From Anolis carolinensis (Eukaryota): a stretch of DNA of 64,000 nucleotides. The notes beneath the pieces were generated by a model. The model was given only the letters and a program-made list of their open reading frames with translations. It did not search any database and had not been told where the DNA came from. The stretch is taken from positions 333,693,402 to 333,757,401 of the forward strand of contig NC_085841.1 of the NCBI RefSeq assembly GCF_035594765.1, given 5' to 3'. This document shows, in pieces, positions 1,155 through 63,907 of this stretch; position 1 is the stretch's first letter, and each line of letters opens with the position of its first letter. A program made the translations under genes and the position numbers.

Positions 1155-1421
1155 GAGCCCCCAGTGGAGCAATGGGTTAAACTCTTGTGCTGACAGACTG
1201 CTGACCTGAAGGTTGCCGGTTCAAATCCAACCTGGGGAGAATGCAGATGAGCTTCCTCTGTCAGTTCCAGCTCCACGCAGGGACATGAGAGAAGCCTCCC
1301 ACAAGGATAGTAAAGCATCAAACATCCGGGCATCACCTGGGCAATGTCCTTGCAGACAGCTAGTTCTCTCACATCAGAAGTGACCTGCAGTTTCTCAAGT
1401 TGCTCCTGACATGAAAAAAAA
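1155..1421 (+). mobile_element. tRNA-derived SINE, near full length, with a probable Vingi-type 3' tail
   Basis: A-box-like GGAGCAATGGGTTAA and B-box-like GGTTCAAATCC. Ends in ...AGTTTCTCAAGTTGCTCCTGACATG plus poly(A). Imperfect TSD TTTATTGA/TTTACTGA. Family assignment from recall. Confidence 0.75.
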
Positions 1422-3018
1422 CTTTACTGACACATATACATTCTCAGCATATCTGTAAACTACCACATAGAAAGAAGATTTTCCCCATTATTAAAGATGT
1501 GCAATGTCCACAATATTCAATTTGAATCACAATTCAGCAAACAGGACAACTCCACTCAGACTGAACTCAATGAACTGGTTTCATGTGTCCAAATCAACTA
1601 TTTCAGATTGGACATCAAAATCATTACTTTTTCCTTTAATTTTTATTGCAAATTAACAAATGGCTATTTTCCCTATTTGTTTAAATTGCATTATTTGTTT
1701 ATATTATAAACACATAGGAGGTGGTTAAATTTATCAGACTTCAGACAAATAGTGGCAAGCCTTGTGAATGGTGTTATTTTTTGTTTCTCATACAATGGAG
1801 ACTACTTTTGGAAGCCTTGTGTAAAGTATTCTCAGATCTGTCCATGTATTGGAGAATAGGAAGAGCTGCATACTCCTGTTACAATTTGAACATAATGGCC
1901 GAGATCCAGCATCAAACTAGTGGAGATAAAAGCTCCATCAAACATAGTTCTGCTCTGTTCTCTTAATTCTGAATACATAACTTACCTTTCTGTTCTTGGG
2001 GCAACCGACCGAAGGTAATGTCAGTGGTGTTTGTGTAGGTAGATGCACAAAGACAATGTCACCCTCACCAATCTAAGAGGACCATCAGGAGATTCTAAAG
2101 GATTTCTTTGTCTTCACATGTTAGCTGCATAAACAAAACTAATATCTTCCTGAGCACTCTCCCCTGACCACTAAGTGGCTATAGAAAGATATATTTGTGG
2201 GTAAGGAGGTCATGGCACAAAGGAAGTACTGGATATTTTCTTCTGTAATGATCATAAAAGAGCATACACAGGCATATGGTGACATTACATATGTGTATAT
2301 CAAGAGAAACATGGGATAAAAATAAATTAAATGTACATGACACTTTACAGTAAAACAACTAAAAACAGTGAATTCTGCCGAAGGCATACAGTCTAAAATA
2401 AATGTGTATGCACATAAATACATAGAGGGAAGGAGGAATAACAAATCACAAAAATGAAAAATAAAATTGCAAAATAAATTATCCATATAAATTGCAAGCA
2501 AACAAATAATCCACAAAATAATGCAGAACAAGTTAACCAATCAATACATGTAAACAAAATAAAGAAGACTACAAAACAACATTGAACTAAAATCACCAAG
2601 ACATTGGAAAAAAATGTAAAAGTTTCAACTGAGATTTAAAAACTGCCAGGGAAGGAGCAGTCCACAAATGCCCAGGAAGGCATTTCCAGGCATATGGGGC
2701 CAATGATGACGAAGACATAAAAAAGTTAAAATATTTTTTGAATCAATCATAAATCAAAATGGACACAGTATTCGAGGAATCAGAAGAGCAGCTAAGCCAG
2801 CTATGAATGAATGAAAAAAAAGAGTATCAAAAATAAAGGTAGAAAAGTATTTGCGAAAGGTGGACAGTGAAGAAAGCTAACAAAAAGAGGATTAATCTAT
2901 TTGAAAAGTGCTGGGAGAGAGTTCTATAGCTACTATGGATTTCCAAAAAGAGAAATAAGTCGAAGAACAAATCAGTTCTCAATTCTCCCTAGATGCCAAA
3001 ATGGTTAAACCATTGATA

Positions 3019-3216
3019 TGAGGCAACATGACTCACTGGAAAAGGCAATAATTCTTGATAAAGTAGAAGACAGTAGGAAGATAGAGATCAGAGAGGGACT
3101 GATGTCATCCAAAAAAAAAAAAAAAGCCTGGGTTTGCAAGAACTGAGCAGTGCTGTCAATGATCAGGGCTCATAAGGTTGCCATAAGTTGGAACCAACTT
3201 AAAGTAAATAACAACA
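3019..3216 (+). mobile_element. Degenerate 3' end of an RTE-clade LINE
   Basis: Remnant of the 'HDSLEK.I.L.KVE.SR' coding end, followed by an RTE-type tail GGTTGCCATAAGTTGGAACCAACTT...AACAACA. Confidence 0.6.
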
Positions 3217-4315
3217 GTATTACTAACAGCATCCAGGCAGTGTGGCGCTGCTGTAAAAATGTCCAATTTATGGCATATAGTTTCCCCTCTTTTGAGAGAA
3301 AGGATCTCATGAATTGTCCGTGCCCATGTTCCTATCATGTTATACGCATTGTGATGTGCAAGGATTCTCTTCGTTCTGTTTTTCATATTAACTCTCTTTC
3401 ATAGTAAAGCCACATGAAATTAATTATTACTGGTTTGCCTGCAGATGGTCCTGCACCATTTTCATGCTGCTGCTGGTGAGCTTAATGTGATGAGGGGCAT
3501 TATGGCAGAGATGGAGAAACGGCCTATGAAGATCATTGTGCAATGGGAAAATCAGGCATGACAGTTCAGCTTAGAGAACCTCCGGGTACTAATGTTGCTA
3601 CATTTCTCTGTCAGGTTACTTCTGTCTCAGTTTTATGGTCAAATGGAATAATAATAATGATGAATAGTCTGAACATGAACACACACACATAGTCCTTTCC
3701 AAAGATGCACCCACACAAATAACAAACATCTGGCCAGAGGGCTTGGCAGCTTGAGCAATAACTTTGTGCTTTCCAGACCCCATTGCCTTCAGAAAGAACA
3801 GTGCCAGCTGCAATCTCAGGCTAGCTCTGATGACACACAGTGACAGAAGGGGCTTCAGCACACATGTCAGTGTTTCCTTTGCTCCAAGAAAGGCAGCAGC
3901 AAGCACAAATAAAATTCTTCAGATGAAATAATAAGATTTACTCTAAAAGGCAATCAGATGGCAGAAAGCGGATTTGACCTGGATGAATGATCTCACTACA
4001 AGATTTGAGGAGCCAATGACCTCTAAATTCTGCATTCAAAACCTTTCAGTAGTTCAACAAATATTCAAAATGATGTTTACTTGAGCTCTATTATTCCAAC
4101 CATACTCTCTCTATTATATCTAGTACATACCACTTGACTGCCAGCAGCTTCAGGTTACTACTGTGTAGCCAAAACGAAATTTACAATATAACATTTTAAA
4201 AACACTTTTATAAAAAAAGATTTTTAAAACTTTATTCCACTCTGCATACTTTCGTTGTGTAATACTGGGTCGGTTAGTAGTAGATTTGGGATGGTTGTGA
4301 AAAGATAGCAAATTC

Positions 4316-17519: not shown

Positions 17520-18231
17520 CTTAGGCAGAAAAAATGAAATGCAAAGATACAGGATGGAGGACACCTGTCTCGATAGCAATACTTGCGAAAATGATCTTGG
17601 AGTCCTCATGGACAACAAGTTAAACATGTGCCAAAAATGTGATGTGGCAGCTAAAAAGCCAATGGAATTTTGGCCTACACCAATAGGAGGATAGTGTCTA
17701 GATCCAAGGAAGACATGCTGCCCCTCTATTTTGCCTTGCTCAGATCACACCTGGAATACCGTGTCCAATTCTGGGCACCACAATTGAAGGGAGATGTTTA
17801 CAAGATGGAATGTGTTCAGAGGAGAGTGACTAAAATGATCAAGCACCTGGAGAACAAGCCCTTTGAGGAGTGTCTTAAAGAGCTGGGCATGTTTTGCTTG
17901 CAGAAGAGAAGACTGAGAGGAGACATGATGGCTATGTATAAATATGTGAGGGGAAGTCATAGGGAGGAGGGAGCAAACATTTTTTCTGCTGTCCTGGAGA
18001 CTAGGACACAGAACAATGGCTTCAAATTACAAGGAGGGAGATTCCACATGAACATTAGGAAGAACTTCTTCACTATGAGAACTGTTCAACAGTGGAACTC
18101 TCTGCCCCAGAGTATTTGCAAAGGCTCCTAATGTAGAGGATGGCCATCTGTCGGGGGTGTTTTGAATGTGATTTTCCTGCTTGGCAGGGGGTTAGACAAG
18201 GTCTCTTCTAACTCTATGATTCTATGATTCT
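17520..18231 (+). mobile_element. CR1 LINE, 5'-truncated (ORF2 C-terminus plus 3' UTR)
   Basis: ORF 17670-18131 contains 'PLYFALLRSHLEYRVQFWAP', 'KRRLRGDM' and 'IRKNFFT...WNSLP'. Ends in (TTCTATGA)n. Confidence 0.95.
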
Positions 18232-28270: not shown

Positions 28271-30039
28271 TTCTTGTGAAAAAATTATGCTACATATTTC
28301 CTCATTCTCTCTGACAGTGTCCTATTGATGATGGTTGAGGGACAAGAGAGAAGTGGGCATGTTTGCATTGCCACTTACACGAATGATGTGAACTCATCCT
28401 TTATGTTGAAAAAAAAACTCATACAAATTCGTGGGGTCCATGCAGTATTCTTGCTTTCACTGAATAAGAGTCAGGAAACAACGTTTTGATCTCAAGGAGC
28501 TCAGTTACTTTGATCATATTGCTTTCAGTAGCTCATGGGCAGGTAGGTATCAGAAGAAGGCAGTCATGGGCGAAATCTGCTTCCCTAAAAATATACCCAA
28601 TTTTCTCACCATACATGAGAAGTGGGGAAAGTGCAATCTGCTGGATACATACAGCCTCTAAATCTGCAGTTGTGATCTGGAAAGACCCAACCCCCTCTCA
28701 TAATATGATAATTTATTTTACTCAGAGTGCTCCCTGTACCTTCTGCACAGTGTCACTTTCACCATAGCCCCCTCTTCCATGGTAAGGTATATTTCTTCAT
28801 TCCCAGAAGTGACTTCCAACATTTCCTGTGTTGATAAAGAAGTCTCCCTGGGAACAGAACAAGGGGGCAAAAAATGGCAAAACAATTAATCCATACTCTG
28901 TAGAAGGCAGAGGCAGTAAATTGGAGTAAAAAAATACCTCTCCAAATTTGAGAGGAGGATGAAGTTATAATGGGTGTGACCCTCTAGGTTCTGATGGCAG
29001 GCATATGATCCTCTGAACCTGTTCTAAAGGTAGAGAAGGGGTTCAGAAGAAATTGCAAGCATGTAACAGCAAGATTTTACATTGAGGCTTTAGTGGGGAT
29101 CTGGTTTAGTATCCTCAGATCCATTCTTAAAATGGCTTTCAAGGTGGTCAACTTGTTGTTGGTTAAGGCCAGGTGCATCATTTGTTGGTAAACCTGTACC
29201 AGAGAATTAACGCTTCACATTGAGGTGGGTGTAGTGGGCAACATCCCCCCCCCTTTCAATCGTCTACGTGGTGGAACCTTTTTGAATGGTGCAATATCCC
29301 AGTTGATGTCTAAAGCCATACATCCGAGACACAGTTTTGCTTTGTGGACAAAACTGAACACTGTAGATTTACTTGTGTGCAATAATTCATTATGAATCTT
29401 TTTCTTTTCCACAGCAGAGGTGATCCAAAAATAGTCTTGAATTCAAATATTTATTATAACTAGATTCTTATTTTTGCATCCTTAAGTGTAGCTATCATAG
29501 GTTTCAAGGAGTCATACATATGTTCATCTCTTGGCACATATCTGTGTTTTTCATCCTTTGCCAAATCATAGGACAGGACTTAATTTCTGCTCTGTCCATT
29601 CAAGGATCCAGGTTTTTGTTTTGTGGGATTTTTTAACATTCTGGAGTAACTAAAATCTAGGGAGTTTTCAATATTTGGATAAGCTCTTTCTCAATTTCCA
29701 AATTAATACAGCATCTATTTTCAGACAACACGTAGTGAGTTGGATGGAAATTTGGAGTGAAATAAGAGTTTGGGCAAAAAATCTCCTGAATGCAATTCTA
29801 TTTATTCAAGAAGATCTGGATCCATTGTTTTGTTGCTCAGGCTTATCATGTTTGTAACACATCAAAACAGTTATTTATAGTACTGCATTCCTACCATTCA
29901 ACCACCACAATTGCCACCACCACTGTCATCAAGAAACTTGTTCTAATCTTCAGCCCATTTCAGCCAGGACTCAGCATAAAAGGGATTTGAAAAAGCAGAA
30001 ATATTCCTGGCAATAATATTATTCACCCCCTTCACTTAG

Positions 30040-30347
30040 GACGACAGTTAACGATCTTCAACACCCAGGCGCAAATAGCCATTGGAGGAAAAGACAGAGG
30101 GCGTCTCTTCCAAGGCCAGCTCTCCGGTCTCTATTATAATGGTCTAAAAGTACTGAACATGGCAGCAGAAAACAACCCCAACATCAAGATCAATGGAAGC
30201 GTCCGGCTCGTTGGAGAAGTGCCCTCCATCTTGGGAACAGCGCCCACAACATCCATGCCACCAGAGATGTCTACCACTGTCATGGAGACCACCACTACTA
30301 TGGCCACTACCACAACTCGAAAAAACCGTTCCACACCCACCATTCAG
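30040..30347 (+). CDS. NRXN3: Neurexin-3 constitutive exon after SS4 (end of LNS6 plus O-glycosylated Thr-rich stalk), 308 nt, phase 1-0
   Basis: cacttag|GA...ATTCAG|gtgagt. Translates (G)[102 protein letters not shown]; the stalk sequence is characteristic of NRXN3. Confidence 0.97.
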
Positions 30348-33300
30348 GTGAGTCATTTGATTTGTACATACCCTGGTTTTATTTTCTTTATTCTTTACCA
30401 TATTTGTGTTTTTTAAAGTTTTAAACAGCGATAAAATCCAGTCAAGAATTTGACCTTTTTTAGATTTGATATGTTTTCTTCTTTGTTATGGTGGAAATAA
30501 AATAACAGGGCCAAGTATTTTTGTGATATCTCTGAGAACTCCACTTTATGCTTGTATGTATGGTGGACAACTGGAATTGAAGTGTGTAATTTGAAAAAAG
30601 AGTGAAGGACTAGGATTGTATATACTAAAAAGGATGGAAATGCTGATTATTACTTTTCAAGTGTGTTTCTTGATTATTGGTTAAGATTTTGTCAGAGAGA
30701 ATTACAGTGTTCAAGGTGAGTTGTTCTTGAACCAAGCTTTAGACAAACTAACATTAAAGTGGGAATTGTTAGACAGTTGCTTCAAAATTCAAGGATCATT
30801 CAATCAGATGCTTTTGTTATGCGTAATGGCCCTTATTGTCAGGCAAGCATGCATTTATGTTCTTACTATAGCCTCATTAAACCTGTAAGAGGCTACACAG
30901 ATCCTCGGTGTGTCTTTTAAATAATAATGGTTGAGTAATTACTTATTTTAAATTGCTATATCTTGCTTTTCAGAGCAGTACACATTAAACTCCTAAAACA
31001 ATAAAGCAAACAGTACAACTCCCATCATCCAACATATCGAGGAAAGCTCAAAAGCTTGATTTTAAAGAAAAAAACTCTTAGCTGTCCTCTTAAGTTCAGA
31101 GTGTTAAGAAGCCACCAGTAGAGACTAATGGCTTTGATGTGAGTGGAGTGCTGAATTTGAAATTTAAAGGAGACATCAAAAGCACTGAACACATTTTGGG
31201 AAATCCCCCCCAGTCTTCAGGAACAAGAGGTTCCAGAGGTGACAGCAGGGGTGGGGGTGGGGAATGGGCACCAGAGAACAGGTTTTCCCACATTTTGTCC
31301 CCTTATGAATTCTTGGAAATACAAGGTAAAGGGTCTTGGTGGAACATTTCAATTCTTGAGTAGAATTATGGAAAGAATTTTGGGAAACTGCTCCCAAATC
31401 CATGCAGATTTTTATATCTTAGAATACACATTTTGAATTGTGAATAGAGGCAAACTGGAATCAAACTAAGTGAACTAACAAAGTAGCAGGGGTGGGTAAA
31501 CATTCTCTAGAAACATTTTCTCAATTCATTCCTGCAGGGAGAACTGGAACCACCACAGAGTGGCATATCTAACCATAGTTGAGAGTATTCAATGCCTCTG
31601 AAAAATGGTGCAGAATCTATAGGGACACATTTCTGCTGTCTAATTCTCAAGATAGTTATCAGTCTCAATGCCATAATCAGAACAGATGCCATTAGGGCAG
31701 TAAATCTGCTTAGGGTTTAGTCTGAACTTTAGAAGTACTTTAGGAAATGTATCCAATAGATTTAGTATCTTCAATAGGTCTTTTTAAAGTTCAACCTGAA
31801 AGCTACAGAAGGTTCACCCATCTGTTCACGTGGGAATCAGACTTTCTCTATGTGTGTACACAATATACACTGACACAGAAGTGGTTACCCACTTTCTTCT
31901 GGGATGCAGCTTATGGGGATTGCCATAATGAGTGTCTACGCCACTCTGCTTGCCATACCTACAGCTCTTTTGCATAGTGAAAACCTAGGTGGCTGTGAAT
32001 CAGCTCAAATTATTGTTATTTTTGGCCCTAATTTACTGCTAACTTCATATGAGTCTGCATTTTATAATGTCTTCAGGCAGAGTCACCCACATCTATTTTG
32101 GGTTGTGAATCACTGTGAAAGATTTGGAATGTCTTTCCTTATTTGGATATTCTACATGGTCATGAAAAAAAATTATAGGCTGGATTCTGCTCTTAGATCA
32201 TAATTTAATCAAACGTTGTAAAAATTTATTAAGCTCCTTCCAGTTATATCAGTGCCACCCAACCAAGTTGATTCCATTTAGTGAAAGAGTCTCAGATGTT
32301 TTCTCAGAGGTTTTAGCATCATCTACATGGGGACTTGCTAAACCTAAGACAGTCATTATGTTCTTTAAAAAGCATCAGGATGATTTAATAAAGTGTAGAC
32401 CAGTCTCTAAAAACATGATTGGAGCAATGATTTCCTGCGTGCACCTCACGACAATGAATAAATGGTCTCATCTTAACTTATATTAAAGCAATAACTCTTG
32501 ATACTTCACTCTTCCCCACTGAAAGAAAGATAAAGTCAATATGCACTTCCATTACAATTCTCTGTTTGTCAAGAGCAGGTCAGTTTATTGCTGTCATAGA
32601 GCGCAATAATTCTTTCTTCCATTCATTCACCCAGCAGAGTTGTTCAACTCTATCTGCATAACATGTATTGTGTGTAGGTTCAGCACCATAAAGAGGCATG
32701 CATGGGGAGCTGCTAACACTCGGGGGGGGGGATCTCCTATGTTATGCTCCATTTTAAAAATTTACAGGCACTACCCCCCATCTTTATTTCCCCTGGCATT
32801 CTAGTGCTAAGTGGATTTGAGTTCCAATTTGGGATTTTCTGCCAGAGCTCCGAAGCTTAATATATGATGGTGATGTTGGAGAGGTGACTTCTCTTATCTT
32901 TTGATAGACTAACCATCCCTACATGTGTGCATAAATATACACACACTAAGGATGGAGATAATATTTGAAAATGTTTATTAATAGTCAGTAATATGTTTCC
33001 TGAGTGTAAGAAAATCTGATAAGAAGTCCTGTATGTATGCAAACCTTTTCAGTTCAGGATTACCCAGATTGAACTTTGCTATGGCCTCCTCCACTGCTAA
33101 TGAGTGCATGTTTCAGCCAAGCATTTATAGACCCTTTCCCTTGGCCAGTAACTCTGTTTATAAGGATTCATGGGAATCCCATTGATGTTACTCTATTTAG
33201 CACAAGGAGGTTAGGAAAGAGAGGGTTTATGGAGACATCATGATCATGGATTTCCTCCATACCCCCTTCATATGTTGCAATTTTCCCATCAAGAGATTGC

Positions 33301-56355: not shown

Positions 56356-57142
56356 TAAAACGTGTTATATCTTTCTGGAAATAAATTTCGTCTTTTTAGT
56401 AGCCCTCAGAATAGACCACCAGCCAGCTTAAGTAAAATGTTATTCCTCTGCCTGCATCTCCAGGCCAGCAAGCAGAGTTTGTCAAAGACAACAATGACAA
56501 CTGCAGTGGATAGACTAGGAAGCCATTTGTGGGAGTGTTCTGCCATTCCTTATCACCCAAGATTTCAACAAGGGCCAATGGATAATGACTGCTGAACTCA
56601 AGCTCTGCTGCAGTTGGACAGAGGAGCTGTTCATGTTAGTCTTAACATGACATAAATATATGGAAATGCTGCCAGAAGAACTTGTTTGTTTTTAGGTCGA
56701 GGCACCGTCAATGCCCTCAGGTAATTGGATCCAGTAAAGAAGAAGTAAAAAACATTGGCTGGCTTGACCTTTGAAGCTAACAAATTGTGTTGCAGTCTCT
56801 CCCAATCGCTCTTATTTATTCATTGCAATGGTTGTTTAAAGCTTGTTTATTTGGAACAACAGCTACAAAGGGAAACATTTATGTACTGATGAGCTTCCTC
56901 CTTGTTAAAGGAGATAGCTTTAAAAGGGCTCAAAGAGCTTTAATTGTAAGCAAATATAAGTCTGCTGGAAAAGTGATGAGTGCTTCTGAGAGAGTGGCCA
57001 TGTAAGCCTGTATTTTTTCACAAGTACAGATGGTAGAACAATTTCCCATGCATCCATGGACTGCTTCCTTTGCTGTCACTCATTTGTGATTTTTTACATC
57101 TGATTAATTCACAGACAGGATATTATTATTATTTTTATTATT

Positions 57143-57434
57143 ATTTTATTATGACACAGCAAACAAGATAGATATGCTGGATTTCGTTTCACAAAATCAC
57201 AAGTCGAACACTTCCCAAGTGTCTAGGACACCTGGGTGACGACCAGTATAGACTTTGTTTTGGTTTGATTCTCCATAATGCTAATGGGTTAGGTGCACTT
57301 GGTTTCACTCCTCAGCTGAGGCCTTTCTGGCTTGGTTGGACCTGCCGGTAGTTATACTACTGCCAGCACAGCCCTCAGTCATCATTGGAGTGGTTAAGCC
57401 CCCCCACCACATCAACGTGGCACCTGCGGGGAGG
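57143..57434 (-). mobile_element. Short internally deleted non-autonomous R4/Dong-like element (structured 5' segment plus 3' UTR)
   Basis: 57151-57229 is nearly identical to the 3' end of the adjacent element (57481-57559). 57230-57434 is a different, structured segment that starts exactly at the (TAA)n. The unit is bounded by (TAA)n on both sides. Confidence 0.75.
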
Positions 57435-57471
<37 letters not shown>

Positions 57472-57473
<2 letters not shown>

Positions 57474-58229
57474 TTATTGTATGACACAGCAAACAAGATA
57501 GATATGCTGGATTTCGTATGCCAAAATCACAAGTCGAACACTTCCCAAGTGTCTAGGACTGTGTGATGTATTTTCGGATGATGCGGGCAGATCCCAGCAG
57601 GGTGGCCTTTTGCAGTTGGCAGATCATAATTTTGTCAATGTCTATTGTTTCCAAATGCCGGCTGAGATCTTTTGGCACGGCACCCAATGTGCCAGTCACC
57701 ACCGGGACCACCTGCACTGGTTTCTGCCAACGTCTTTGAAGTTCAATCTTGAGCTCCTGATAGCGGCTGAGTTTTTCCTGTTGTTTCTTGTCAATGCGAC
57801 TGTCACCTGGGATGGCAACATCAATGATCCAAACCTTTTTCTTTTCCACAACTGTGATGTCTGGTGTGTTGTGTTCCAGAACTTTGTCAGTCTGGATTCG
57901 GAAGTCCCACAGTATCTTTGCGTGCTCATTTTCCAATACTTTTGCAGGTTTGTGATCCCTCCAGTTCTTTACTGCTGGGAGGTGGTACTTGAGGCATAAG
58001 TTCCAATAAATCATTTGGGCCACATAGTTGTGCCTCTGTTTGTAGTCTGTCTGTGTGATTTTCTTACAGCAGCTGAGGATATGATCAATGGTTTCGTCGG
58101 TTTCCTTGCACAGTCTGCATTTTGGGTCATCAGCTGATTTTTCGATCTTGGCCTTAATTGCATTTGTTCTGATGGCTTGCTCCTAGGCTGCCTTCTGTCT
58201 CCTTCTTCAGTGTCCCATTCATGAGCCAT
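57472..58229 (-). mobile_element. R4/Dong-clade non-LTR retrotransposon, 5'-truncated (CCHC knuckle plus restriction-like endonuclease)
   Basis: Encodes 'KCRLCKETDETIDHILSCC...YKQRHN...LWDFRIQTD...NTPDITVV...WIIDVAIP...EKLSRYQEL'. An upstream stop and frameshift inactivate it. Inserted in (TAA)n, the known Dong target. Confidence 0.92.
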
Positions 58230-59156
58230 ATTATTATTATTATTATGAGCCTACATGAATGATCTCAGAAGAGAGTCCCTTATGTCTGATTCCTTGCGTC
58301 AATTTTTGTTTCATATAACCCATGATGGTATAGGACTTTATCTTATGAAACTGGTATTTCATGGCAATTTCACAATCATAGACAGTGGATAGATATCTGG
58401 ATGAGCACCTCTGTTATTTCATCTCTCTCCATTTGTACAATTGCACAAATTCACTTAACGGTGGTCCTATGGTTTAACTTCAGGATATCCTTGTAACCCC
58501 ATCTTCCTGCACTTCAATAATATTTTTTTTAAAAAAAAAAACATTAACAGCAATTTCACAGTTTCAACAATAGTTAACAAAAAACATCAAATCACCAACA
58601 AATATAAATATCAAATTGCTCATAATTGTAAGGAGAAGAAGGGAGGAGCAAAGGAGAATGTCACCAGTGATGTCCCTTAACTGCTGGCATGCTGGTACAG
58701 AAGCAGAAGAGATCCATTGCACCAAGATAGGTGATGGAAACATTCCAGAATTGTGAGTTATTGATGGGTTTTACCCATCAATACAGGGGGACAGGTTAAT
58801 TGCTGAGAGGAGGCAGAGAGGCAGCAGGATGCATATGATGTCATGCGATAGGGACTTTCACCAATGGCAATGGTCCAGCTTCAGTGATAGCTTGGCTGCC
58901 TCCTGCAATAAAGTGCTTAGATTCCTTCACACCCAGATTGACCTCATATAAAAACAGATGTACATAGATGAACAGACCAATGCACAAAAATTCCTGAAAG
59001 CATGTAAGGTGGAAGTCTTATTAAGATTTGTGCATACCCCAAATTGGTAGCTTTTAAATTAAGAACTCAGCAAATTTGGGTTAGAGGTCACATTCTCAAA
59101 AGACACATTTAAGAGGCAGTCATTTTCAGGGCTGAAAGTGTATTATTTCTGTAGAG

Positions 59157-60781: not shown

Positions 60782-61730
60782 ACTTTATTTGTACCCCGCT
60801 AGCATCTCCCGAAGGACTCGATGCGGCTTACAAAGGCCAAGGCCTCAACACACAATATAACAATACAAAACAAAAGGCAAATTAAAAACAATTAAAACAG
60901 TATAAACAACAAGCAATAAACAATACGCTAAAACACAATAAAACTGGGCCGGGCCAGAGTAATGGGTACAAGATTAAAAGTGCTGATGTGACAGGTGATA
61001 TATAAGGCTTCTAGGGCAAGTGCAGAGTGCGATATACGATCTAGTTCTAATAAAGTGCTTATGGGACTTGGAGTTGGAGATTTCCTATTAATCTGGGAAG
61101 GCACATTGGAACAGCCAGGTCTTCAAGTTCTTTCTGAAGTCTGCCAATGTAGGGGCCTGTCTGAGATCCTTGGGGAGGGTGTTCCAGAGTCGTGGGGCCA
61201 CCACAGAGAAGGCCCTGTCTCGTGTCTCCACCAACCGCGCTTGCGACGCAGGTGGGATCACGAGCAGGGCCTCTCCAGATGACCGAAGTGAATGCATGGG
61301 TTCGTAGACGGAGATGCGGTCACGGAGGTAGGATGGTCCCAAACCGTTCAGGGCTTTGTAGGTAAGCACCTGCACCTTAAATTGGGCTCGGAAAGTAAAT
61401 GGCAGCCAGTGGAGCTCCTTGAACAGGAGGGTTGACCTCTCTCTGTAAGGGGCCCCAGTTAACATCCTGGCTGCCGCTCGTTGGACCAGTTGGAACTTCC
61501 GAGCCATTTTCAAGGGCAGCCCCACGTAGAGCGCATTACAGAAGTCCAGTCTGGAGGTGACCAAGGCATGGACCACCCCGGCCAGATCAGCCTTCGCGAG
61601 GTACGGTTGCAGTTGGCGCACGAGTCTCAGTTGTGCGAAGGCCCTCCCAGACATCGCCGACGCCTGAGCCTCGAGCACAAGCGATGAATCCAGGAGGACT
61701 CCCAGACTGCGGACCTGTGTAACCCCGTCC
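60741..61730 (-). mobile_element. Young 5'-truncated L2 LINE with an open ORF2 C-terminus, 3' UTR and (TAA)n tail
   Basis: Uninterrupted ORF ('VRSLGVLLDS...VHALVTSRLDFCNALY...LHWLP...RAFSVVAPRLWNTLP...FRKNLKTWLF'), many CpGs retained, and a possible TSD ACCTTT at 60735-60740 / 61731-61736. Confidence 0.93.
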
Positions 61731-63907
61731 ACCTTTCTGTTCCCTAAAGAAATATCCACTTATGACAGACTGATTTGGGCATGATGTTAATGCAAGAAAA
61801 CTCCCAAACTCTGTCACACATGAGGCTGCAGTAATGGTTTGCTAAAGAAATAGTAGTGACTGCTAGGTCCAATGGCCATAGGGTAGCGAAGGTACTCTGG
61901 GTTTTAAGCGTAAAACTAACAGAGTTAATTAAGATTCCAGGACCTTGTACATTGGGCCCCGCCTACACAACCACTCACAAAAATAGAAATGTAATTTATT
62001 GATAACATAAATTTGTATTTATTGGTCATCATAAACCAGGAGTTTATTTTTCTTCACTTTATTTTCTTACACTTCCTCTAACCCTTCACCACACAAATAG
62101 TATTCTTGAAACACAAACAGCAGAGGTTCTGCTTCTGATAATAGAAATGTACACTGCCAGCAATTGTTGTCTCCAGCCATCAATTGCCTCCTGCACATCC
62201 ATTACAATATTCAGCTTCCATAAAATTGCACGCAATAAAAAGAGTAAAAATTTTCTTATGGATGCAGGCATGCCAACTCTCTGCTACAAGTGGTATTTTT
62301 CTCCTTTGACCAAGTTAGCAGGAGATATGACTGTTGAGGTGGGTGATGGGAAAATTACTGTTAAATGCAGATCTCTGCATAGATTAGCAGAGACATTCCC
62401 ATGCATTGAGACGGCACTGTGATACACGTCTTTCAGAACTTTACAGCAGACAATTTGTTTAATGCATGAAAACAACAAATCTGCTTAGCAAAAGTCAGTT
62501 TCCCAGGGTCCAAAACTCTCTGAGATTATTCTTGTTCTATGTGCAGTAGTGAGGACTCATCCATTAACATATGCCACTACCTATAGAACTAACACCTTAC
62601 ACCGTCCTTGAAATTTAGGGCAAGGCTCATTATTTGCATCTTTCTGGATCCTATTATATTCTATCCCAACCCCATAACTGTATAAATTTGCTTTATGCCT
62701 GAGGCCTTAATACCACTCGGTATTCTTGTGAAAATAAATCTTAAAGATGCTACAATAGGACCTTGGATCACTGCTTTAAAGTTCAGAATAAACCTCTCTA
62801 ATTGTTTTGGAAAGAATGGCACAATTTTCAGACCTGCTCCCCCCCCCAAAAAAAAATCATCCAAAGTATATAAAACTATACAAACTACCCCCATTCTGTC
62901 CCAACAAGCATCCCAGAACCTTGGGTACCACTAAATACCTGTGCAATCCCTCACAAAATGGCATCAGAAGGTGACGACTTTCTGTCACTATTTTGAGGGA
63001 CTACTAAGAAAATTGAAATATTTGGACTTGTGATGAGTGTGGCCCGGAGGAGCCTGGGGGAATTGGTTTGTGGCTCTTATGCACTGGCCCACTTTTGTCA
63101 GAATAAGGCCACACATACTACAGTAAATGTTGAATTCTAGCAAGCAGTGGATGAAAAATGTGGAAGAACAATGTTGGATTGAATATGGCAGTCTGGTCAA
63201 CTTTCAAGGTCAAACAAAAACTTTTCTTCTTAAAGTATAGAATTCTGTTGGTGCATTAAACATATTTAATTGCACAAGTATATGACATGGAAAAGGAAAG
63301 GAAAAGTCTAAAAGTCAGTTGTTGAGAAAGAAGTATCACGTTAGATAAATTGGCTATTGAGAAGTAACAGATTTTGCCTGGCTTCCCTCGCCACTGTTGG
63401 AACCCTGTCATCCCAGAAAAGGTTAACCTGTTAGAGTAGAATGGCAACTAGGTTTTGAAGCTGTTTCTGCTTTGGAGATGAGAATTGCTCATGGTGTGAT
63501 TTAGTAACCTGAAAGAGATTAGAGTGGATGAATGATTCTAATCTGATTTTTGATAATTAGTTTCACACCTAAATATGCATACAGTATTTCATGTTTGGTT
63601 TTATAATATCCATTGCAGAAGTCATAGCTGAGGTATGTGCCACCAAATGCACTGCAATCCATCCTGTTTCCAGACTTGTTTCAGAGGGTGAAAAGCTAAT
63701 GTTGGTTTTCAATTTATGTTTTTTGTTATTTCCAGATAGTATTGGGTGTGTATGTGTGTGTGTGTAATTTGTAATGGAGGTTAAGAAAGTTAGAAAAGAA
63801 AAGATCTAAGTTGGCATGGAAAGATTTCAGGTGGTCCATGAGCTTAAATTGAAAAAAAAATCAACTTAATAGCTTTATTTTCTCTGACCTCTAACTGAAA
63901 TCTAGCA

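Follow-up and report, generated by a model that had tools for sequence, protein, structure and literature searches.

A one-off deleted copy of an R4/Dong-type LINE in Anolis carolinensis and a recurrent inversion at nucleotide 340 of its parent family

Does a short, internally deleted retroelement in the genome of Anolis carolinensis belong to a family of its own, or is it a single deletion product? The question arises at one place in a 64,000-nucleotide (nt) stretch of contig NC_085841.1 (assembly GCF_035594765.1, positions 333,693,402 to 333,757,401 of the forward strand; hereafter the window). Here, two fragments of a long interspersed nuclear element (LINE), which we call R4/Dong-type from the layout of its open reading frame (ORF) and its TAA target, lie one behind the other in a (TAA)n repeat. 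The second is a fusion of the element's head and tail, and the original prediction tentatively placed it in a mobilised family resembling the short internally deleted elements (SIDEs) of R2. We find it to be one internally deleted specimen of a 3.65-kb R4/Dong-type LINE, a one-off and not a family. About half of the parent family's 5' ends are inverted at one fixed point. The window's short element is itself ordinary; the family-wide hotspot at nt 340 is probably a variant of an already known process, twin priming. We give a probability of about 0.8 to the combined reading that the window copy is a single deletion, likely left by a jump of the reverse transcriptase, and that the parent family carries hundreds of nt-340 inversions, likely made by twin priming.

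The short element and its junction

All parts of the locus were read on the minus strand, over the span 58245-57121, and mapped onto L038, a full-length copy of 3645 nt elsewhere in this genome. Direct reading confirmed the predicted order of a truncated copy and a head-plus-tail fusion, each set in (TAA)n, and the R4/Dong-type label is supported by the layout of the ORF and the TAA target:

58245-58230, minus: (TAA)5, the upstream target repeat
58228-57480, minus: 5'-truncated R4/Dong-type copy, element nt 2886-3645, 94% to L038, with CCHC knuckle, restriction-like endonuclease region and 3' untranslated region (UTR)
57478-57435, minus: (TAA)15, separating the two insertions
57434-57231, minus: head of the short element, element nt 1-209 with a 5-nt deletion
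57434-57291, minus: predicted ribozyme resembling that of hepatitis delta virus (HDV), element nt 1-144
57385-57312, minus: box C/D-type kink-turn motif within stem P4 of that ribozyme (AUGAUGA, nt 50-56; CUGA, nt 120-123)
57276-57231, minus: native ORF start, element nt 159-209, with the private 5-nt deletion
57230, minus: single untemplated T at the nt 209/3566 junction
57229-57150, minus: tail with last codons, native stop and 3' UTR, element nt 3566-3645, 97.5% to L038
57225-57223, minus: the native stop
57149-57121, minus: degenerate (TAA)n downstream repeat

The 205-nt segment in front of the junction had been singled out with the question of whether full-length copies begin with it. They do: it is the parent family's native 5' end, and all 29 of the other head copies fetched run on at nt 210 into the native ORF. 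To search for the junction, for heads and for tails, we used exact anchors over the 1.85-Gb genome, and the resulting counts are lower bounds. The nt 209/3566 junction pattern had one match. Head and tail lay no more than 400 nt apart at seven, then eight, places, and the eight short fusions all have different junctions (209/3566, 316/3567, 359/3525, 127/2853, 294/3414, 286/3400, 311/3392 and 137/3402). Further sense deletions are also one-off (42/3561, 321/2812, 355/2127, 376/2133 and 912/3516). In four other runs, summed contig depth dropped to 0-93 across the window's junction, from tens of thousands to millions in the adjoining sequence, and loose ends at the junction continued as native sequence. 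A separate observation concerns locus L077, where three telomere-like TAGGGT units separate the 3' piece from head nt 127.

The 5-nt deletion in the head is equally private, since the three matches among 121 motif occurrences checked all come from the window locus. It also accounts for a short reading frame noticed earlier. A 17-codon frame does link the ATG at 57276 with the native stop, but it reaches that stop because of the private deletion and is an accident of it; the ATG itself is the element's real start codon, used in all 18 full-length copies checked.

How the deletion arose is a separate matter. The reverse transcriptase probably jumped from nt 3566 to nt 209 of the RNA during insertion. 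The alternative is a later genomic deletion within a full-length insertion, by repair between similar words: CAC(C/A)CAG words end both sides of the junction, one extra base stands between them, and recombination or repair is the favoured origin of the Drosophila SIDEs (PMC3414825). However, distinct sense deletions that remove more than 40 nt and leave from a head piece mostly have their 5' breakpoint at or below nt 376 rather than anywhere across 3.6 kb. This clustering fits a jump at the RNA level, in a sample that is partly biased. A later genomic deletion is a possible, though unlikely, origin of the window copy.

That the short element founds or joins a mobilised family of SIDEs, or of anything like a short interspersed nuclear element (SINE), is very improbable. 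Under the definition in PMC3414825 both required parts are present, a parental 5' end with its ribozyme region (core altered at two positions) and the parental 3' UTR, and the element sits in the parent family's own target, as R2 SIDEs of Drosophila do (PMC3414825). To this extent the SIDE-like layout stands. Several independent insertions sharing one junction were found neither in the exact-anchor genome search nor in the four runs, where no junction was amplified; a junction unique genome-wide is the outcome that the original prediction had itself set against a SINE-like family. While the R2 SIDEs described in PMC3414825 are multi-copy, old and conserved lineages, the window holds one copy with a damaged core and a private deletion, among unrelated one-off deletions.

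Inversions at nucleotide 340

The same head anchors reveal a class of copies that is far from unique. The head breaks at nt 340 straight into (ATT)n in 607 exact matches, while 352 show the native continuation. On the opposite strand, the anatomy reads (TAA)n, an inverted head from nt 340 down to a variable end near nt 1, and a sense 3' piece. Our description of this anatomy comes from the first 50 copies in coordinate order. A sense 3' piece is joined in 46 of them, with 44 different starts between nt 1282 and 3566, which indicates separate insertion events. The inverted head reaches nt 13 or lower in 35 of the 50. The 3' end of the sense piece enters (TAA)n in 31, is out of view in 10 and has no repeat by our test in 5.

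Two further counts give the share of the class. Among 46 consecutively listed head anchors (from the first 48, with two probable near-duplicates left out), inversion at nt 313-340 accounts for 22, another 22 continue without a break and the remaining 2 are sense deletions. On the forward strand, (ATT)4 follows within 400 nt in 264 of 473 head anchors; reverse-strand counts of this search repeat loci and were left out. An interior control anchored at nt 1800 gave 7 of 639, though the span it covers includes the best repeat match of the element, at nt 2031; the head and control patterns differ by one leading letter. About half of the family's 5' ends are inverted at one fixed point, although the class is only about 2% relative to all 3' anchors. 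The break into (AAT)n at nt 340 is also present in contigs of four out of four independent runs (8, 17, 14 and 10 contigs) and so is not an assembly artefact.

Elsewhere in the element such events are sparse. The 11 interior matches include four inversions, two of them with adjoining breakpoints as in L1 (L142, 1973/1970; L146, 2111/2108). Another AUUAU, at nt 156, goes unused: the 17 distinct loci among the first 100 rows all break at about nt 313-350. A mini-copy of about 140 nt (inverted nt 340-281 plus nt 3566-3645) occurs at three places with shared flanks (L064, L072 and L153), so it was multiplied within a larger stretch; at L064 it is interrupted by another insertion.

The junctions themselves point to priming by the cut top strand of the target on the RNA. 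At nt 336-340 there is a 5-nt match (AUUAU) between the two, and an extra A of repeat type stands at nt 335 in 16 of the 50 inverted copies, compared with none of the 100 native copies listed. Where inverted heads reach nt 1-2 (17 copies), none continues as the ATT repeat, as expected if the RNA begins at the cut of a ribozyme predicted at the element's 5' end.

The predicted ribozyme and a proposed route of insertion

The original prediction had called the 205-nt segment structured. Energy folding of the head gave no signal (z = 0.09), and in this sense the description did not hold. However, nt 1-144 fit a nested double pseudoknot, P1-P2-P3-P1.1-P4, at the element's 5' end, and the prediction of an HDV-like ribozyme fold in the head is supported by modelled pairing and comparison of copies. 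P1 pairs nt 1-7 with 30-36, P2 nt 10-16 with 137-144 (with a bulge) and P3 nt 17-19 with 27-29; P1.1 has one pair (22/37) and P4 is long. In J4/2 (C-N-A-A), the predicted catalytic base C133 hardly varies among copies; A135 and A136 never do, whereas position 134 is variable. An HDV descriptor matches one place only in the element and none of 5000 shuffles. When 41 distinct copies are compared, pairing holds in 97.1% of cells, and at two pairs of P4 both partners differ between subfamilies. The kink-turn motif in P4 was likewise found in none of 5000 shuffles, and its columns are invariant or nearly so in the aligned copies. A search of the window stretch against Rfam gave chance matches only. 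The window copy fails the descriptor through C19G in P3 (57416) and C24T in L3 (57411), and its predicted ribozyme is likely broken.

Put together, these features suggest the following sequence of events. The HDV-like ribozyme would cut the RNA free at nt 1, just past the host (TAA)n. A nick in the bottom strand would then prime copying from the RNA 3' end, usually stalling within 0.1-2.4 kb. The top strand would be cut before copying ends, and its end, of the type ...AAUAAU, would pair with AUUAU at nt 336-340 and prime a second complementary DNA (cDNA) running to the RNA 5' end. One RNA would thus be copied from both cut ends of the target DNA, and joining of the two cDNA ends would leave (TAA)n, inverted head, sense 3' piece and (TAA)n. 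The window element would be the sense-orientation counterpart, in which the first cDNA jumps to the same stretch of 5' RNA close by. Position most likely accounts for the preference for nt 340, the first few hundred RNA bases being held near the target or the second nick, and such tethering would also explain why sense deletions fall mostly within the first 380 nt or so. Alternatively, a short run to the RNA end may make joining easy. The complete version, a built-in step in which the 5' 340 nt stay bound to protein at the target, top-strand cutting comes early and a single AUUAU serves as priming site for the microsatellite end, is a tentative proposal to which we give somewhat less than even odds.

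Several observations weigh against these interpretations. All eight short head-plus-tail matches lie on one genomic strand, for which we have no explanation. Searches for sense deletions were restricted to 400-nt gaps and exact anchors, and their 5' breakpoints are biased; the later genomic deletion discussed above belongs here as well. Among the 50 inverted copies, four have no joined 3' piece and 11 have an inverted head that stops before nt 30. Subfamily markers agree between head and 3' piece (mean r 0.31 compared with 0.04 permuted, n = 33, p = 0.0002; young subset 0.27 compared with 0.09, n = 20, p = 0.017), which would fit a single RNA as template but is confounded by age, that is, time of activity. 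The HDV descriptor was composed after the sequence was seen, the alignment to an Rfam HDV family at the same place is weak (E 6.1), and the first P1 base is C or U and not the usual G. Finally, the accessibility of the nt 336 site may explain part of its preference without tethering.

This last point leads to the strongest competitor, in which twin priming is set by sequence and RNA accessibility alone, the cDNA begun at nt 340 simply reaching the RNA end and being joined easily. Among five matching sites, the one at nt 336 is the most open, with an unpaired probability of 0.50 compared with 0.07-0.27 for the other four, and most inverted heads do run to the RNA end. However, the site at nt 2031, a better match (6 nt; 10 of 15) with half the accessibility, accounts for just one of the 11 interior cases, against more than 600 at nt 340. 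A preference of several hundredfold goes beyond a twofold edge in accessibility, and from this we infer either tethering of the 5' RNA or easy joining. We regard accessibility alone as rather unlikely, if still a serious contender.

Built-in twin priming at one site also has to be compared with an origin of the inverted head from a separate short RNA (nt 1-340), or from a second RNA molecule, on the opposite strand at the same cut. Such a source would suit the sharp break at nt 340 and the four copies without a 3' piece. The joined 3' piece in 46 of 50 copies, the agreement of subfamily markers between the pieces and the extra A at nt 335, which suggests that target DNA primed at an internal site of a longer RNA, make it improbable. 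Snap-back synthesis by the first cDNA, which in R2 transgene insertions gives junctions with inverted pieces that arise after full-length synthesis (PMC11371274), is hardly credible, since it copies only sequence already in the cDNA, while here nt 341 to 1282-3566 is absent and the inverted piece comes from far 5' of the sense piece.

Ribozymes cutting at the exact 5' end are known for Dong of Bombyx mori and R4 of Ascaris (PMC3774820), and the R4 clade of Anolis has been described as two families with about 3,000 copies, 994 of them full-length, and a length of 3.8 kb (PMC5389967). The parent element resembles these in its single ORF, its TAA target and its predicted HDV-like ribozyme at the exact 5' end (PMC3774820, PMC5389967), and differs in the box C/D-type kink-turn of P4; we found no literature on a kink-turn in an HDV-like ribozyme of a retrotransposon. 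The excerpts of the same two papers do not report the inversion class, the word inversion being limited there to a reference title (PMC5389967). Our searches found no published inversions, at a fixed site or otherwise, for R4/Dong elements; Repbase and the 2009 survey of Anolis LINEs fall outside this coverage and may already record the class.

Twin priming was proposed for the 5' inversions of L1, found in about 10% of human copies (PMC2912911), and in human cells inversions occur almost only with L1 (PMC4245944). As in twin-primed L1, the top strand would use a short match to the RNA to prime an inverted 5' segment, which is joined to a sense 3' segment (PMC2912911, PMC4245944). In contrast to L1, the parent element has an enzyme of the restriction-like class and a fixed priming point, its inverted piece usually extends to the extreme 5' end, and a stretch of 0.9-3.2 kb is missing between the two pieces. 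The model of two RNA ends for R2Bm, with 5' and 3' protein-binding motifs (PMC6895275), gives a reason for 5' RNA to be at the target during insertion, as proposed here. In that model, however, top-strand cleavage waits until the 5' RNA has been removed by cDNA synthesis, and the inversion copies need a cut while nt 1-340 is single-stranded. R2Tg cuts the top strand early without the 5' UTR (PMC12222951).

The timing and manner of second-strand cutting and priming form the least understood step of LINE insertion (PMC6895275), and more than 600 natural insertions record that step here at one base-exact position, for a class of enzymes whose relatives, the R2 proteins, are used to insert genes. 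If the single-site pathway is true, about half of the insertions bearing a 5' end become dead, flipped copies, and the genome records in vivo the order in which restriction-endonuclease LINEs cut the two strands. Copies with both ends could also be scored as full length by end-based methods. The full-length numbers of Anolis R4 may consequently be overstated by up to about twofold; our 972 head anchors come close to the published 994 (PMC5389967).

The parent family and the surroundings of the array

The parent LINE, of about 3.65 kb, has one ORF for a 1137-amino-acid protein with matches to RVT_1 and, weakly, zf-RVT, that is, a reverse transcriptase plus a C-terminal CCHC/endonuclease region. 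We take a motif in this ORF, identified by eye, to be that of a restriction-like endonuclease. The protein's closest solved structures in the PDB are R2 proteins, and the top database match is a UniRef entry from A. carolinensis (99%); the matches included no protein named R4, Dong or Rex6. The ORF is intact in 6 of the 18 full-length copies checked. A head search of the genome gave 2140 candidates, and 3' anchors number 34,549. No RNA source was listed with the head sequence, a result that is uninformative on expression.

The original prediction also suggested serial re-targeting of one microsatellite. Tandem stacking in one TAA run is real, and it is ordinary for the parent family: by hand count, a same-strand neighbour lies within 1 kb for 43 of the first 100 3' ends listed. 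Starts of short copies are dispersed, commonest near nt 3530 and 3548, with no truncation hotspot at the stop codon (by eye, first 100 of 2740). Five tandem arrays fetched (L173-L177, the G000:C1 arrays) all consist of one longer copy followed by repeated 3' units of about 93 nt, which begin at nt 3551-3553, where the element is AAT-like. Shared spacer variants suggest that they grew by slippage or unequal exchange, not by serial insertion. At the family's 5' junctions the C-run is frequently longer than 7 (L003, L004, L005, L049, L124 and L125), a lengthening that likely reflects slippage at the RNA end.

Elsewhere in the window, an open frame on the plus strand (29991-30416) resembles a neurexin exon, though without a Pfam match; should that label be correct, the array may be intronic and antisense to the neurexin gene. 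Fragments at 61088-61759 (minus) and 17655-18131 (plus) look like ends of other LINEs, L2-like and CR1-like respectively, again without a Pfam match. Immediately upstream of the array, at 58264-58220 (minus), the initial bases of the truncated copy recur in the flank of the first (TAA)n, one time in direct and one time in inverted orientation, perhaps as a templated addition at the 5' junction.
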